A stretch of DNA of 64,000 nt from Escherichia coli (GTDB taxonomy: Bacteria; Pseudomonadota; Gammaproteobacteria; Enterobacterales; Enterobacteriaceae), in the NCBI RefSeq assembly GCF_041886205.1, contig NZ_CP169029.1. One strand, 5' to 3'. A program made the position numbers and the translations under genes. The notes under the pieces were generated by a model, which saw only the letters and a list, made by a program, of their open reading frames with translations, ran no database searches and had not been told where the DNA came from. Below are positions 17,783 through 57,794 of the stretch, piece by piece; position 1 is the first letter of the stretch, and each line of letters opens with the position of its first letter.

Positions 17783-18421
17783 ATGCCCGGGCGCTTTGAA
17801 CTAAAACCAACCCTGGAGAAAGTCTGGCACGCGCCGGACAATTTTCGCTTCATGGACCCGCTGCCGCCGATGCATCGTCGGGGGATCATTATTGCCGCCA
17901 TTATATTGGTGGTCGGATTTCTGCTTCCATCTGATGATACGCCCAACGCGCCGGTGGTGACGCGTGAAGCGCAGTTAGATATTCAGTCGCAATCACAACC
18001 GCCGACAGAAGAACAGCTGCGGGCGCAATTAGTCACACCACAAAATGATCCTGATCAGGTGGCTCCGGTCGCTCCAGAACCTATACAGGAAGGCCAGCCA
18101 GAAGAACAGCCGCAAACTACCCAAACACAACCATTCCAGCCAGATAGCGGAATTGATAATCAATGGCGCTCTTACCGTGTCGAACCCGGTAAAACGATGG
18201 CGCAGCTGTTCCGCGACCACGGACTGCCCGCTACCGATGTCTATGCAATGGCGCAGGTAGAAGGCGCGGGTAAGCCGCTGAGTAATTTGCAAAACGGGCA
18301 AATGGTGAAAATCCGCCAGAACGCCAGCGGCGTGGTGACGGGCTTAACCATTGATACGGGGAATAATCAACAGGTCCTGTTCACCCGCCAGCCGGATGGC
18401 AGTTTTATTCGTGCGCGGTAG
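17783..18421 (+). CDS. ytfB: OapA/LysM-domain protein YtfB
   Basis: ORF 17747..18421, start at [23 protein letters not shown]; proline/glutamine-rich linker. Confidence 0.88.
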
Positions 18422-18522
18422 ATGAAGGGTCAACCAAAAGCCAGCTAAGGATTGTCTCTTTGATGACCTTACGTCTGGCTTCCAGTGCCTGGGGGGAAAC
18501 CATACTGATATGTTGACATCCT

Positions 18523-18542
18523 CCACGCCCTGAAGGACGTGG
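18523..18542 (-). repeat. Right-end subterminal hairpin of IS200/IS605 element (13 nt downstream of tnpB stop); candidate omega-RNA / TnpA recognition structure
   Basis: Top strand CCACGTCC-TTCA-GGGCGTGG, 8-bp stem with one G-T wobble. Confidence 0.6.
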
Positions 18543-18555
18543 ATCCCTGCTACGT

Positions 18556-19764
18556 TCAGGCTGTCGCCTGAATCATTTCGGTGGGTTCCTGCTTCAACGA
18601 GCGGCCTGACTGCACCATCTCTCCACAGGCAAGAACGGCGTGCCCCGCCGCTAAAATGTTACGAGCGCCATTTACATCGGCGTTCGCTGTATATCCACAT
18701 GCCTGGCATCTGAATTTACTTTGTGACAGGCGATTTTCTTTCGCTGTATGACCACAGCACGCGCATCGCTGGCTTGTGTACGCTGGCGGAACAGCAAGCA
18801 CCTGACCGCCACGCCAGAGCTGCTTGTACTCAAGCTGGCGGCGCATTTCATACCAGCCCTGATCCAGTATCGTACGGTTTAAACCTGATTTTGCCCGGAC
18901 ATTGCGACCCGGCTGGCTGACCGTACCCGCTGCTGACTTTGACATGTTGCTGACCTTCAAATCCTCAATGACTATCATTGCGTGGTTTTTGCTGACGGTC
19001 GTTGTGACTTTGTGAAGGTAGTCCCTGCGGATATTTGCGATACGGGAATGCAGTCGCTGTATTTTGCGTTCCTGCTTCTGCCAGTTATTGCTGAATTTGA
19101 CCTTGCGGCTTAACTGTCGCTGAAGTCTCGCCAGCTTCTTCTGGTTTTTCTGAAAACTGTTTACAGGCTCAAAGACTGTGCCATCTGACAGCGTGGCGAG
19201 TTTAGCCACGCCAGCATCCAGCCCGACCATTGATGCTGAAGGGTGAACCGGAGTTGATACTTCACTTTCTGTCTGAATACTGATGTACCACTTACCGCAG
19301 GACTGGCTGACAGTGACATTTTTCACAACTCCCGTGACCTGACGGCTATTCCGGTAGCGCATCCAGCCCAGTTTCGGCAGAAAAATACGGCTGTTTTCCT
19401 GATCGAGCTTAACGCCCTGCGGGTAGCGGAATGCATCATTCTGTCCCCGCTTTTTGAATCGGGGAAAAGCAGCCCGCTTCTGGAAGAAGTTTTTGTAAGC
19501 CCGCTCAAGGTCTTTCAGTGACTGTTGCAATGGCTGTGACGGGGCATCTTTAAGCCATTGCGTTTCAGTGGCATTTTTCCACTCAACCAGCCAGGAAGCC
19601 ATTTTTCCGTAAGGGATGTATTTATTACCGGCCTCATGATTCTCATTCTGACGTGCCAGAGCACGATTGAAAACGAAACGACATGCGCCTGCGAAGCGCC
19701 TCATTTCACGCTCCTGTTGACCACCGGGTCTTAACTGGAATTTAAATGCCTGTAGTCGTTTCAC
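18556..19764 (-). CDS. tnpB: TnpB (IS605 OrfB) RuvC-like RNA-guided endonuclease, 402 aa, apparent GTG start
   Basis: RuvC-I D in [10 protein letters not shown], RuvC-II E in [11 protein letters not shown], zinc finger CACCGH...CQACGY, RuvC-III D in ADVNGARNI. Confidence 0.85.
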
Positions 19765-19771
19765 AGGCCAA

Positions 19772-20386
19772 ATGATACTTTGGTCTGTGAAAAAAGAAAC
19801 CGATATCCGGCGTGGAAGGCATTGTGTTTTCCTGATGCATGTTCACCTGGTCTTTGTCACCAAATACCGACGCCAGATTTTTGACCATGACGCGACAGAA
19901 AAACTACGCACTTACTTTTCAAAGGTATGTGCTGATTTTGAAGCTGAACTGGTTGAAATGGATGGCGAACCAGATCACGTCCATTTGTTAATTAACTATC
20001 CTCCCAAACTGGCGATATCCAGTCTGGTAAACAGCCTCAAAGGCGTATCGGGTAGGTTACTGCGACGAGATCGACCAGATATTGCAGTCAGGTATTACTA
20101 CAAAGGCGTTTTGTGGAGTCCTGGCTATTTTGCCAGTAGCTGCGGAGGTGCGCCAATATCCGCCATCCGTCAATACATTGAACAACAGCAAACACCTGGT
20201 CAGGTGGAAAACCGCGCCGTATATCCCCGCCCTGAAGGACGGGGTTTTACGGCGCACCGGATAAACCAGGCCAAGCGTATGCTGGTTGATCCAATAATAT
20301 CCCCCAAGCGCAGCAATATTAATATTCACCTGCAATGGGTCGATATCTGGCTTAAAAATATTGTGTTTCTTTCCTTCATCCAATAA
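19772..20386 (+). CDS. tnpA: TnpA, IS200-type HUH Y1 transposase; ORF lacks a stop inside the predicted element and reads through the left end
   Basis: KYRR motif, HUH motif DHVHLLI, C-terminal Tyr in AIRQYIEQQ; start ATG only 7 bp from divergent tnpB start; functional protein probably ends near 20230-20260. Confidence 0.75.
20225..20244 (-). repeat. Left-end subterminal hairpin of IS200/IS605 element
   Basis: Top strand CCCCGTCC-TTCA-GGGCGGGG; shares loop and 12-nt core with right-end hairpin. Confidence 0.6.
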
Positions 20387-20604
20387 GGATTCCATTAACT
20401 GCAAGTGCGCATGGTTAATTTCTAAGAGACGCTGTGATTTTGCATAATGCACACCTTTACTTTGATTTTCACTATGCACAATTTTTAAAAACCACGGGTT
20501 AGCAATATAATAATCCCATGTAAAATCAATAATTTTCTCAATGGCTTTTTGTGGCTGGTTAACCAGATGATTAACAAACGCACCGATACCGACAGCGTAG
20601 AATA
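20245..20604 (-). pseudogene. ytfA: ytfA remnant: C-terminal portion of a possible TetR-like regulator, no N-terminal HTH or start; 3' end runs into the IS element
   Basis: Open frame ...[77 protein letters not shown]... preceded by stop; continues antisense through tnpA 3' region. Confidence 0.5.
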
Positions 20605-21037
20605 ATTACATACCGCACAACAAGAATGTATGGTGTAAGGCGTGGAAGTCATTTTCTTCCCGGGTGCATCGTTATATCCGTGATGAGCGATTTTTGATAT
20701 TAATATCTTTCACCATCCGCTATTTTTACTACTTCAGAAAACAAACTTATTTTTATTAATATCGATTCTTTTTCTGTAAGCATTTAACTACGATATTTAT
20801 AAAAACATTAAACAGGTAACATTACAATGACATTACCAACGACTATTTATTCATTTCGTGCATATTTACCTCGTTTTTCGTCCACCGACAAACCAGTAAA
20901 ATTAAAATTTCATGAATATGCCCGTGCTACATTACTGCCAAATCGTGGAAGAGATCATAATTGCGATGGCAGACGTACTGTTGTGAACCGCCCCGGGAAT
21001 CCTGGAGACTAAACTTCCTGAGAAAGAGGTAAACAGG

Positions 21038-21364
21038 ATGACTAAAAATACTCGTTTTTCCCCCGAAGTCCGTCAACGGGCAGTCCGTATGGTTCTGGAA
21101 AGTCAGAGCGAATATGACTCACAATGGGCGACAATTTGTTCCATTGCTCCAAAGATTGGCTGTACGCCGGAGACTCTGCGTGTCTGGGTTCGCCAGCATG
21201 AGCGGGATACCGGGGGCGGTGATGGAGGGCTCACCACCGCTGAACGTCAGCGTCTGAAAGAGCTGGAACGTGAAAATCGTGAACTGCGCCGCAGTAACGA
21301 TATCCTTCGCCAGGCTTCCGCTTATTTTGCGAAGGCGGAGTTCGACCGCCTCTGGAAAAAATGA
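21038..21364 (+). CDS. IS629 OrfA (HTH transposase subunit, 108 aa)
   Basis: [31 protein letters not shown]...; leucine-zipper-like C-terminus. Confidence 0.9.
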
Positions 21365-22251
21365 TGCCACTGCTGGATAAGCTGCGTGAGCAGTACGGGG
21401 TCGGACCGCTATGCAGCGAACTGCATATTGCCCCGTCAACGTATTACCACTGTCAGCAACAGCGACATCATCCGGATAAACGCAGTGCCCGTGCGCAGCG
21501 CGATGACTGGCTGAAGAAAGAGATACAGCGCGTATACGATGAAAATCACAAGGTATACGGTGTGCGTAAAGTCTGGCGTCAGTTGTTACGGGAAGGTATC
21601 AGAGTGGCCAGATGCACTGTGGCACGTCTCATGGCGGTTATGGGACTTGCCGGTGTTCTCCGGGGTAAAAAGGTCCGTACGACCATCAGCCGGAAAGCCG
21701 TTGCCGCAGGCGACCGCGTAAACCGTCAGTTCGTGGCAGAACGACCTGACCAGCTGTGGGTGGCTGATTTTACTTACGTCAGCACATGGCGGGGCTTCGT
21801 CTATGTGGCGTTCATCATTGATGTGTTTGCCGGATACATCGTGGGGTGGCGGGTCTCATCGTCCATGGAAACGACATTCGTGCTGGATGCACTGGAGCAG
21901 GCGTTATGGGCCCGTCGACCGTCCGGCACGGTCCATCACAGTGATAAAGGTTCTCAGTATGTATCGCTGGCCTACACACAGCGGCTTAAGGAAGCCGGAT
22001 TACTGGCATCAACAGGAAGTACAGGCGACTCGTATGACAACGCGATGGCGGAGAGCATCAATGGTCTTTACAAAGCGGAGGTAATACACCGTAAGAGCTG
22101 GAAAAACCGTGCAGAAGTGGAACTGGCCACACTCACGTGGGTGGACTGGTATAACAATCGACGATTGCTGGAAAGGCTGGGCCATACTCCTCCGGCAGAA
22201 GCAGAAAAAGCTTATTATGCTTCCATCGGAAACGATGATCTGGCAGCCTGA
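21361..22251 (+). CDS. IS629 OrfB (DDE integrase/transposase catalytic subunit, 296 aa); overlaps orfA, typical -1 frameshift arrangement
   Basis: rve-type core ...[49 protein letters not shown]...[11 protein letters not shown]...[15 protein letters not shown]. Confidence 0.9.
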
Positions 22252-22954
22252 GTTCACAGATAAAACACTCTCCAGGAAACCCGGGGCGGTTCAGTTGAGA
22301 TCCACAAACTAGATCTCTCAGACTGGCAAGCATTCAATAAACTAGCGATGGCGTGTAATGCTTACGATGGAATAACAATGAATGGTGATAATTCTTTTGG
22401 ATGGAACCATGAAGCTACATTAGATAATATTCACGCCCAGAAATACAATAAAGCTTACGCGGGTGCGAGGTTAACCGCAGAACTGAAATATTTATTGCAA
22501 GATGTCGAATCCTTCGAACCCAACAGTAAATACACAATACATGAGGTTGTTTTGGGACCTGGTTATGGTACTCCAGATTATACCGGCCAAACGATAGGAT
22601 ACGTTGTAACCCTTCCTGCCCAAATGCCTAATTGCTGGTCATCTGAACTACCAACAATCGATCTTTATATCGACCAACTTCGCACTGTTACAGGCGTTTC
22701 TAATGCCCTCGGATTCATCATTGCTGCATTGCTAAACGCGTATTCTGATTTACCCCATGATTTGAAAATTGGTCTACGTTCCTTATCAAATTCAGCAGCA
22801 ATCTACTCGGGTTTGGGTTTCGAGCGAGTGCCGCAGGACCGAGACATAAGGAGTGATCGTATGCATCTAACGCCAGCAAACCATCCTGACTTATGGACAC
22901 AAGAGAATGGTGAATGGATCTACTTGCGAAACTAATACCTGACGAAAAATAGAA

Positions 22955-22986
22955 AGCAAAACGCCGACCAATGGTCGGCGTTTTTA
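22955..22986. terminator. Bidirectional intrinsic terminator between convergent yjfZ and rplI
   Basis: cgccgacc aat ggtcggcg hairpin flanked by A-run upstream and T-run downstream. Confidence 0.7.
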
Positions 22987-23005: not shown

Positions 23006-23467
<462 letters not shown>

Positions 23468-24049: not shown

Positions 24050-24463
<414 letters not shown>

Positions 24464-24771
24464 TTATTCAGCCTCCTGTCTGGGTCAGCCGAATCCCGGG
24501 GAGGCAAGGAACGTGTTAAAGGTCGGCTGAAAAATGACGCGTTATAGTACTTGTATGCCCCGCTAAACTCAAGGGCAGCCGACAAATAAATCTCATCTTT
24601 CGCTCAAAAGAACTAACTCGCTGATTTGAAGTTCATCACATTCCGTCACAGTGTTTTTTCGAACAACTGCATCAGAAATGGTCACCATCAACTTCTTTAT
24701 CATTGATTAAAATTAAATCAGAAGATCATCACAGAGGAGAGCACACAAAGTCAGCCGTCGAGGAGGTATCT

Positions 24772-57226: not shown

Positions 57227-57495
57227 TTCATCCACAGCTTGTGAATAAAAATAAAAACGCATTGCAATTCAAGACGAATAAAATCGTCAAGTGATCGACT
57301 CGACAAAACGGAATCTTAATTTTTAACTTATCTATCAATAGGTTAAAAAAATACTATTCACCGTGCGAAGTTTCTTTGAAATTAAGATTACAGCCTGAGG
57401 CTGTGGATAACTCTGTTTACAAGAGTTTGTCAGAGACAACAAAAACCAGCAATAACGCATCGCGTCGCTGTGGATATTTTATTGAGAGAAGAATT

Positions 57496-57571
<76 letters not shown>

Positions 57572-57606
57572 TTGGGTGGTCTGTGCCTTACAGCACTTTC
57601 AAATTT

Positions 57607-57682
<76 letters not shown>

Positions 57683-57718
57683 TTGGGTGGTCTGTGCTTT
57701 GTAGCACTTTTCAAATTT

Positions 57719-57794
<76 letters not shown>

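Follow-up and report, generated by a model that had tools for sequence, protein, structure and literature searches.

Two described members of the IS200/IS605 family, IS608 of Helicobacter pylori and ISDra2 of Deinococcus radiodurans, have a Y1 HUH transposase (TnpA) and subterminal hairpins, lack inverted repeats and target duplications, and insert 3' of a short specific sequence, which is TTAC for IS608 and TTGAT for ISDra2; the right end of IS608 finishes in TCAA. The IS609 copy of Escherichia coli K-12 (insP/insQ), which lies beside ydcL, has divergent tnpA and tnpB genes, hairpins, the target TTAT and a right terminus in ...TCAA. Members of the IS629/IS1203/IS3411 group, in turn, are 1310 bp long, with TGAACCGCCCCGGG repeats, the genes orfA and orfB with an ALIL element, and a 4-bp target duplication. 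Here we describe one insertion sequence (IS) of each kind in the interval between ytfB and rplI of an E. coli genome (NCBI RefSeq assembly GCF_041886205.1, contig NZ_CP169029.1), within an analysed stretch of 64,000 nucleotides that we call the window. The IS609 copy in the window shares with IS608 and ISDra2 all the features named above, and with IS608 also the right end in TCAA, but uses TTAT instead of TTAC or TTGAT; its tnpA and tnpB are divergent, as in IS605. The second element likewise shares the features listed for the IS629/IS1203/IS3411 group. Very probably, the chromosome between ytfB and rplI is dispensable here, is decaying, and has gathered mobile-element insertions stepwise. Both elements are ordinary and well known, lie in dispensable, already decayed DNA, and indicate no new biology; the contents of the locus are of known kinds and largely annotated in RefSeq already, and its features are unambiguous homology calls rather than chance patterns.

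IS609 and the IS629-type element

We aligned the ytfB-rplI interval of the window to that of E. coli K-12 MG1655, and found that two insertions, IS609 in ytfA and an IS629-type element in yjfZ, are the only breaks in collinearity from ytfB (17783-18421, plus strand) to rplI (23006-23455, minus strand). A preliminary description of this locus had stated that two unrelated IS elements about 700 bp apart break up ytfA and yjfZ, which is borne out by the domain and junction evidence given below and by the 723 bp that separate the end of IS609 from the IS629-type element. The flanks in the window are 99.9% identical to E. coli C9, and comparison of the window with itself revealed no further repeated IS. 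The features of IS609 are as follows.

18513..20260, minus strand: IS609 (IS200/IS605 family), 1748 bp, both ends intact (alignment with copies at other loci; exact empty site in strain ESC53083)
20261..20264, minus strand: target tetranucleotide TTAT, directly 5' of the left end (same ATAA flank at five loci)
18523..18542, minus strand: right-end subterminal imperfect palindrome CCACGCCCTGAAGGACGTGG (9-bp stem in a single-stranded DNA fold, z=-2.3; kept in all copies)
20225..20244, minus strand: left-end subterminal palindrome CCCCGCCCTGAAGGACGGGG, within the read-through part of tnpA (extended hairpin in a single-stranded DNA fold, z=-3.5)
19772..20386, plus strand: extended tnpA open reading frame (ORF), 204 aa (Pfam Y1_Tnp, positions 1-121 of 121; NCBIfam transpos_IS200, positions 2-126 of 126)
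18556..19764, minus strand: tnpB/insQ, predicted RNA-guided endonuclease, 402 aa, uninterrupted (Pfam HTH_OrfB_IS605, OrfB_IS605 and Cas12f1-like_TNB)
18497..18690, minus strand: putative TnpB guide RNA (omega/reRNA; sub-threshold Rfam matches and an RNA fold with z=-2.8)

The boundaries of IS609 were set by alignment with the copies at ydcL (K-12), yedK, yeaR and yidH, and the sequence common to the copies runs from TTGACATCC (18513) to ...GCGCACCGG (20260). The top strand of the element is the minus strand of the window, with the left end at 20260 and the right end at 18513, the latter finishing in ...GTCAA on the tnpB strand. At all five loci, namely, ytfA, ydcL, yedK, yeaR and yidH, the left end is preceded by TTAT. 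The exact empty site, GGTTTAT/CATATCAG (the slash marks the insertion point), occurs in strain ESC53083, so the insertion is clean, with zero target duplication, and the IS609-free joint at ytfA, which would be the sequence of an excision product, reads GGTTTATCATATCAG. The alternative of a TTATC target with the element ending at 20259 was ruled out by this empty site and by the five loci. We also considered whether MG1655, whose allele at the target is CACATCAG..., carries a scar of imprecise excision or of TnpB cleavage, given its 2-bp "GT" difference. However, relative to the ESC53083 empty site, MG1655 and B2 strains show only one synonymous CAT/CAC (His) single-nucleotide polymorphism, which also adjoins IS609 in O157:H7 and in STS63-2-E, and the scar was thus ruled out.

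IS609 has no terminal inverted repeats, but similar hairpins lie near both of its ends on the same strand. With a Y1 TnpA, a TnpB, subterminal palindromes and a fixed target without duplication, the copy in the window has, as judged from its sequence, the defining features of the IS200/IS605 family. It is not a truncated element, as might be read from the label "missing C-terminus" given by the Prokaryotic Genome Annotation Pipeline (PGAP), since neither end is damaged and the Y1 domain is present in full (Pfam Y1_Tnp, E=8e-42), with an HVH motif and the Tyr in RQYIEQQ invariant across the alignment; the label arises because the tnpA stop codon is absent. The copy is 97.9% identical to that of K-12 over the full 1748 bp, but is located in ytfA instead of beside ydcL, and it is 97.5-100% identical to the IS609 copies elsewhere, a divergence of about the same order as that of the flanks. 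In O157:H7 (for example, strain PV15-279) and in C9, whose copy is 100% identical to ours, IS609 occupies the same site in ytfA in the same orientation, but unlike in the window, yjfZ in these strains is free of the IS629-type element.

The divergent genes tnpB and tnpA have start codons 7 bp apart. The tnpB product matches Pfam OrfB_IS605 (E=2.5e-34) and NCBIfam guided_TnpB (E=1e-116), and aligns over its full length with ISDra2 TnpB (8BF8, E=8e-56). Its three acidic motifs align with the top match, 9yyg (an AI-designed nuclease), and by analogy probably correspond to the RuvC D/E/D catalytic residues of ISDra2. The putative guide RNA scaffold (18513-18690) overlaps the 3' end of tnpB and the right end of IS609, where Rfam models gave sub-threshold matches to RAGATH-18 (29.5 bits, against a gathering score of 44.9), HgcC (24.6 bits) and sot0042 (17.1 bits), and where the predicted RNA folds modestly better than its shuffles. 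A guide RNA at this end with a guide taken from the ytfA flank is plausible; by analogy with ISDra2, the 16-nt guide would be CATATCAGTATGGTTT (18512 down to 18497), with TTAT as the target-adjacent motif. About 75 bp separate this segment (18497-18512), which has the sense orientation of ytfA, from the ytfB stop codon upstream of it.

The IS629-type element and the gene that it splits comprise the following features.

20984..22293, plus strand: IS629-type element of the IS3 family, 1310 bp, terminal inverted repeats TGAACCGCCCCGGG.... (ends; Pfam HTH_Tnp_1, HTH_21 and rve; Rfam ALIL)
21038-21364, plus strand: orfA
21361-22251, plus strand: orfB (Pfam HTH_Tnp_1, HTH_21 and rve across orfA/orfB)
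21319-21435, plus strand: ALIL pseudoknot for -1 frameshifting, across the orfA/orfB overlap (Rfam, 120 bits)
20980..20983, unstranded: target-site duplication GTTG, left copy (junction against the MG1655 empty site ACTGTTGAGATCC)
22294..22297, unstranded: target-site duplication GTTG, right copy (junction against the same empty site)
20827..20983, plus strand: yjfZ 5' part, codons 1-52 plus 1 nt (Pfam DUF2686, profile positions 17-70; collinear with MG1655 yjfZ)
22298..22935, plus strand: yjfZ 3' part (Pfam DUF2686, positions 91-285 of 285, E=1.5e-114; MG1655 alignment)

Inverted repeats, a 4-bp duplication, and an orfA (helix-turn-helix, HTH) and orfB (DDE/rve) joined by a programmed -1 frameshift place this element in the IS3 family. 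It splits yjfZ at codon 53, and the two parts of the gene (157 and 638 nt) add up to the 795 nt of the full K-12 gene, the largest ORF left being 22348-22935 (195 aa). The 5' part runs on into the left inverted repeat of the element, giving a 61-aa chimeric ORF that ends at 21012. Copies with 100% identity to it occur on other E. coli chromosomes and plasmids, where RefSeq labels them "IS3 family" only; the element is 96.3% identical to an annotated IS1203 of O111, and over its first 100 bp it is identical to a copy in H76 annotated as IS629 family. The yjfZ quantitative PCR primers of PMC11057252 have no match in the window at ≤4 mismatches.

Decay of ytfA and loss of the tnpA stop codon

In B2 and many other strains, such as E2348/69, ytfA is an intact gene of 648 bp encoding a TetR/AcrR-type regulator of 215 aa (WP_001298021.1), with a TetR_N domain at residues 19-61 and a TetR_C_29 domain at residues 83-201. 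Divergent to it lies an operon of six genes (3-ketoacyl-ACP reductase, sugar-phosphate isomerase, enoyl-CoA hydratase, CoA transferase, FAD oxidoreductase and a major facilitator superfamily transporter), which spans about 7.6 kb in many E. coli, between ytfA and yjfZ/rplI, with yjfZ next to it in some strains (loci L011 6249-15571 and L014 1-5899). The intact gene and the operon were seen in E2348/69, ESC53083, E10 and S1-IND-02-A, and ytfA is presumably the repressor of the operon. It has been listed as present in only some E. coli (PMC6790063). E2348/69 has in addition a frameshifted hipBA-like pair and no yjfZ. In the window, three remnants of this region can be recognized.

18405..18512, minus strand: ytfA C-terminal fragment, about the last 35 codons and the stop, 108 bp (partial TetR/AcrR gene in the annotations of C9 and O111; collinear with intact ytfA)
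20261..20555, minus strand: ytfA middle fragment, codons ~83-180 of 215, part of TetR_C_29, with neither start codon nor HTH (96% identical to E2348/69 ytfA)
20559..20661, unstranded: relic of the 5' part of the 3-ketoacyl-ACP reductase gene, 103 bp, ~81% identity (blastn against the E2348/69 loci L007 and L011)

Collinearity of the C-terminal fragment with intact ytfA (E2348/69, ESC53083) extends to 18512, and IS609 lies within the gene at codon ~181, 3' of TTAT. The middle fragment matches TetR_C_29 (E=7e-16) over profile positions 27-110 only, the domain being interrupted by IS609, so that what is left of the C-domain appears to be a fragment rather than a functional domain. In both the window and K-12, homology to ytfA ends at codon 83, the first 82 codons with the TetR_N HTH are gone, and directly past the reductase relic follows the upstream region of yjfZ. 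The K-12 pseudogene (b4205) thus has the same 82-codon N-terminal deletion, but its remnant of 402 bp is uninterrupted, whereas that in the window is also split by IS609; B2 strains, in contrast, keep the full 648-bp gene and the divergent operon, and share 96% DNA identity with the part retained in the window. The reductase relic is a scar of the deletion of the operon. The start codon and the HTH of ytfA are missing because of this older deletion, which also removed the operon, and the IS is not the cause. The relic is only ~81% identical to its counterpart, against 96% for the flanking ytfA DNA, which hints that the deletion arose in, or was imported from, a divergent lineage. The interval illustrates the decay of an orphaned regulator after the loss of its operon.

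The tnpA frame of the window's IS609 is also altered, at the following site.

20201..20203, plus strand: former tnpA stop codon, mutated to CAG (DNA alignment with the Salmonella homologue at locus L015; allele table of 10 copies; allele counts; O157:H7 annotation)

In the 204-aa ORF, residues 1-143 form a complete Y1 HUH transposase, residues 144-163 are read-through of the left end, and residues 164-204 are antisense ytfA: the frame leaves IS609 at its left end (20260) and continues for 41 flank-encoded codons to a TAA. Homologues of 83-87% identity in Salmonella, Proteus, Photorhabdus, Klebsiella and Yersinia end in ...YIEQQQTPG, which corresponds to residue 143. At this point the Salmonella copy has GGT TAG and the window GGT CAG, a single T-to-C change; the frame runs into ytfA DNA because the stop codon was changed from TAG to CAG, and the element is not truncated. 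O157:H7 strain PV15-279 keeps TAG in the same ytfA insertion, where an unflagged 143-aa IS609 transposase is annotated, so that a stop inside the element, absent in the window, is present in another copy of the same insertion. The stop loss is a feature of decay and gives no ground for excluding the copy from the IS200/IS605 family. A mirror image of this ORF is found on the minus strand (20057-20479, 140 aa), with 73 ytfA codons followed by antisense IS609. A scan for promoters and terminators gave about the number expected from shuffled sequences, a result that says nothing on read-through transcription.

In an exact-word search of E. coli genomes, the TAG allele occurred 1583 times across 1411 genomes and the CAG allele 6620 times across 4198 genomes, a ratio of CAG to TAG of about 4 to 1 among IS609 copies. 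Although eight of eight copies had been seen to read through, a stop loss common to all E. coli IS609 is ruled out by these TAG copies, including that in O157:H7 ytfA. Both alleles occur at the ytfA and at the yeaR loci, and the ten IS609 copies compared are mosaics, which suggests gene conversion or recombination between copies. Internal tnpA stops are present in the ydcL, yedK and yeaR copies examined, that of K-12 at codon 96, and absent from the ytfA copy; K-12 and the window both have CAG, but the read-through tail has 5 flank codons in the former and 41 in the latter. The tail is simply whichever flank comes next, and the tails at different loci are unrelated in sequence. Since they are unrelated, the chimeric 204-aa and 140-aa ORFs are best read as passive by-products. 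In O111:H8 strain 8B (locus L001, 5086), the same IS609 copy has ATA instead of ATG as the tnpA start and a tnpB split by IS1203, so that in this other lineage the insertion has decayed further.

These results modify several points of the preliminary description. The alignment to the reference that it named as a check confirms that ytfA is not intact and puts the left end of IS609 at 20260, not beyond 20390. A ytfA remnant at 20245-20604 had been described as lacking the start codon and the DNA-binding region; the loss is real, but homology to ytfA extends over 20261-20555, and 20559-20661, in part taken for ytfA, is instead the ~81% identical reductase-gene relic. The piece at 18405-18512 had been overlooked, so that ytfA was placed on only one side of an element that in fact lies inside it, and the decay of the gene is not due to the IS alone, since a separate, older deletion is common to IS-free K-12. 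The tnpA frame is indeed open over 19772-20386, without a stop in the element, though it takes in 41 codons of ytfA-derived DNA and not ~45, and the pair of antisense-overlapping chimeric ORFs, 19772..20386 (plus) and 20057..20479 (minus), is present as described. Their origin is a different one, however: the read-through is not an effect of the junction or of truncation but of the TAG-to-CAG mutation, as the same insertion in O157:H7 keeps TAG. For annotation, the locus holds one ytfA pseudogene split by IS609 and a yjfZ split by the IS629-type element, and the 204-aa and 140-aa ORFs are better left uncalled as genes.

Distribution, history and rival readings

The left-end junction of IS609 with ytfA was found in 1744 of 5426 complete E. 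coli genomes (~32%), including the B1 strain IAI1, O157:H7 and O111:H8. The K-12-type arrangement, contiguous over at least 80% of the 4.5-kb probe, is present in about 2180 genomes, and in an evenly spaced sample of the remaining genomes the probe matched either the ytfB/ytfA side only, the same pattern as in the operon-bearing loci examined, or the yjfZ-rpsF side only. The junction of the IS629-type element with yjfZ, on the other hand, was found in none of the 5426 complete genomes, and the 61-aa IS629/yjfZ chimeric ORF turned up once, in a 930-bp draft contig (GCA_012373595.2). IS609 in ytfA is thus one old, inherited event, and the IS629-type insertion a recent, essentially strain-specific hop, since the element is 100% identical to copies elsewhere and its insertion is absent from complete genomes. 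The IS629/yjfZ junction can serve as a near-unique strain marker, and the IS609/ytfA junction together with the TAG/CAG allele as lineage markers.

The comparisons show four steps in the history of the interval. The ancestral arrangement, which B2 and many other strains still have, comprised the intact 215-aa ytfA, the divergent catabolic and transport operon of six genes, and then yjfZ, and the deletion of ytfA codons 1-82 together with the operon led to the K-12-type arrangement. IS609 inserted by the single-strand mechanism of the IS200/IS605 family, 3' of TTAT at ytfA codon ~181, without duplication. In the lineage of the window, the tnpA stop codon changed from TAG to CAG, opening the frame through the left-end hairpin and 41 antisense ytfA codons, and the IS629-type element transposed recently into codon 53 of yjfZ with a 4-bp duplication. 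The insertions may persist since ytfA was already dead and yjfZ is non-essential; an intact TnpB with a right-end guide RNA may also aid the persistence of IS609, characterised relatives being known to re-cut the empty donor site. Several points weigh against this account. The order of the deletion and the IS609 insertion rests on distribution only, and K-12-type sites without IS609 exist, which might have arisen by precise excision. That yjfZ is dispensable is an assumption based on its interruption here and on IS1 insertions elsewhere. Moreover, the Rfam matches of the putative guide RNA all fall under their gathering thresholds.

The preliminary description saw in the locus a pile-up of IS elements and a hotspot of mobile-element accumulation. 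There are indeed two IS, but "pile-up" overstates the case, as IS609 is ancient in about a third of E. coli and only the IS629-type insertion is recent. Distinct-site insertions in unrelated lineages comprise four of IS1, one of IS1203, one of the IS629-type element and one of IS609, the IS1 and IS1203 insertions lying within the same 2.5 kb. The four independent IS1 sites, in window-equivalent coordinates, are 20763-20771 (AW1.7), 20781-20784 (CH459), 20791-20799 (51489) and 20872-20880 (STS63-2-E); they fall within 120 bp in the upstream region and 5' end of yjfZ, and the strains that carry them are unrelated and represent three locus backgrounds (loci L012, L016, L017 and L018). All four IS1 insertions have one orientation. 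A reading of the ytfB-rplI interval as a hotspot, to which these independent IS1 and IS1203 insertions in other lineages testify, therefore has moderate support, although an excess over neutral expectation is not demonstrated. A stronger claim would be that the local DNA, AT-rich, possibly curved or bound by H-NS, and beside a highly transcribed ribosomal operon, actively attracts transposition. Together with the IS629-type site (20980-20983) there are five independent insertions in ~220 bp, IS1203 sits inside IS609 tnpB in 46 O111-type genomes, and the guanine-plus-cytosine content upstream of and within the yjfZ 5' end is 0.34-0.38, compared with 0.52 for the whole window; IS1 prefers AT-rich targets, which also speaks for such attraction. 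Against this, such events are infrequent (20 and 46 of 5426 genomes, 0 for the IS629 site), come from several IS families that differ in their target rules, and occur in IS-rich strains with 20-68 copies; the counts are of raw junctions, and IS609, which contributes most, is one inherited event with TTAT as its only target. We thus regard active attraction as rather unlikely. The insertions look like the outcome of tolerance in AT-rich, non-essential DNA, because they are rare, occur in IS-rich strains, and fit the AT preference of IS1 and an absence of selection on ytfA and yjfZ.

It is also conceivable, though we think it improbable, that IS609 at ytfA is still active and maintains itself, with TnpA excising and inserting it, and TnpB with its guide RNA cutting the empty TTAT-CATATCAG... 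joint and so restoring the copy. Such activity would explain its retention in a third of E. coli, and the copy has both ends and hairpins intact, an uninterrupted tnpB that aligns in full length with ISDra2 TnpB, a tnpA with a complete Y1 domain and, unlike the ydcL, yedK and yeaR copies, no internal stop, weak matches to TnpB-associated RNAs with structure at its right end, and a perfectly matching empty target in ESC53083. Yet there is no sign of recent movement, the same few loci being occupied across strains, and vertical inheritance suffices for the distribution; the 61-aa extension right after the helix of the catalytic Tyr may impair TnpA. IS609 of K-12 showed zero transposition in mutation-accumulation lines (PMC5009759), though that copy has an internal stop. 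That the 204-aa fusion of TnpA with antisense ytfA, or the 140-aa ytfA-antisense IS ORF, is expressed and functional, as an attenuated transposase or as a ligand-binding TetR C-domain fragment, seems to us extremely unlikely. The 204-aa ORF is open and of the same length at the ytfA locus in C9, O111, STS63-2-E and Ecol_316, the protein clusters P0008 and P0011 have thousands of members, and CAG prevails over TAG; however, the tails differ wholly between loci, the ATG is lost in the O111 copy, the 140-aa ORF starts from an internal GTG, lacks an HTH and has lost the native ytfA promoter region, PGAP flags all of them as pseudogenes, and the abundance of the 204-aa cluster mirrors clonal inheritance. 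Scarcely more credible is the idea that the CAG allele reflects gene conversion and selection for an attenuated transposase rather than neutral decay, which is raised because of the 4:1 excess of CAG, the presence of both alleles at ytfA and yeaR, and the mosaic copies. If true, an attenuated transposase would freeze IS609 in place with TnpB and guide RNA intact, and the CAG allele would be an early step to host capture of TnpB. The polymorphic loss of the tnpA stop beside an intact tnpB and the decay of ytfA add modestly to what is known of IS200/IS605 decay in E. coli.

Neighbouring and other features of the window

The genes and signals at the borders of the interval are the following.

17783..18421, plus strand: ytfB, cell division protein, intact (ORF list; RefSeq annotation of the 100%-identical region in strain C9)
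23006-23455, minus strand: rplI, the neighbour from the ribosomal-protein operon
22958..22984, unstranded: GC-rich, terminator-like hairpin between the convergent yjfZ and rplI, at the edge of the dispensable segment (terminator scan: 12-bp stem and T tract)

The convergent coding regions of ytfB and ytfA share 17 bp at their 3' ends (18405-18421). Upstream of the rpsF-priB-rpsR-rplI operon, an intact RpsF leader, a known autoregulatory element, was found at 24443-24527 on the minus strand (Rfam RF02893, 110 bits). Elsewhere in the window, a tandem array at 57494-57794 has a 111-bp period, 2.7 copies and 97% identity, with a tRNA-like sequence on the minus strand of its unit; this array looks like the glyV-glyX-glyY tRNA-Gly cluster.

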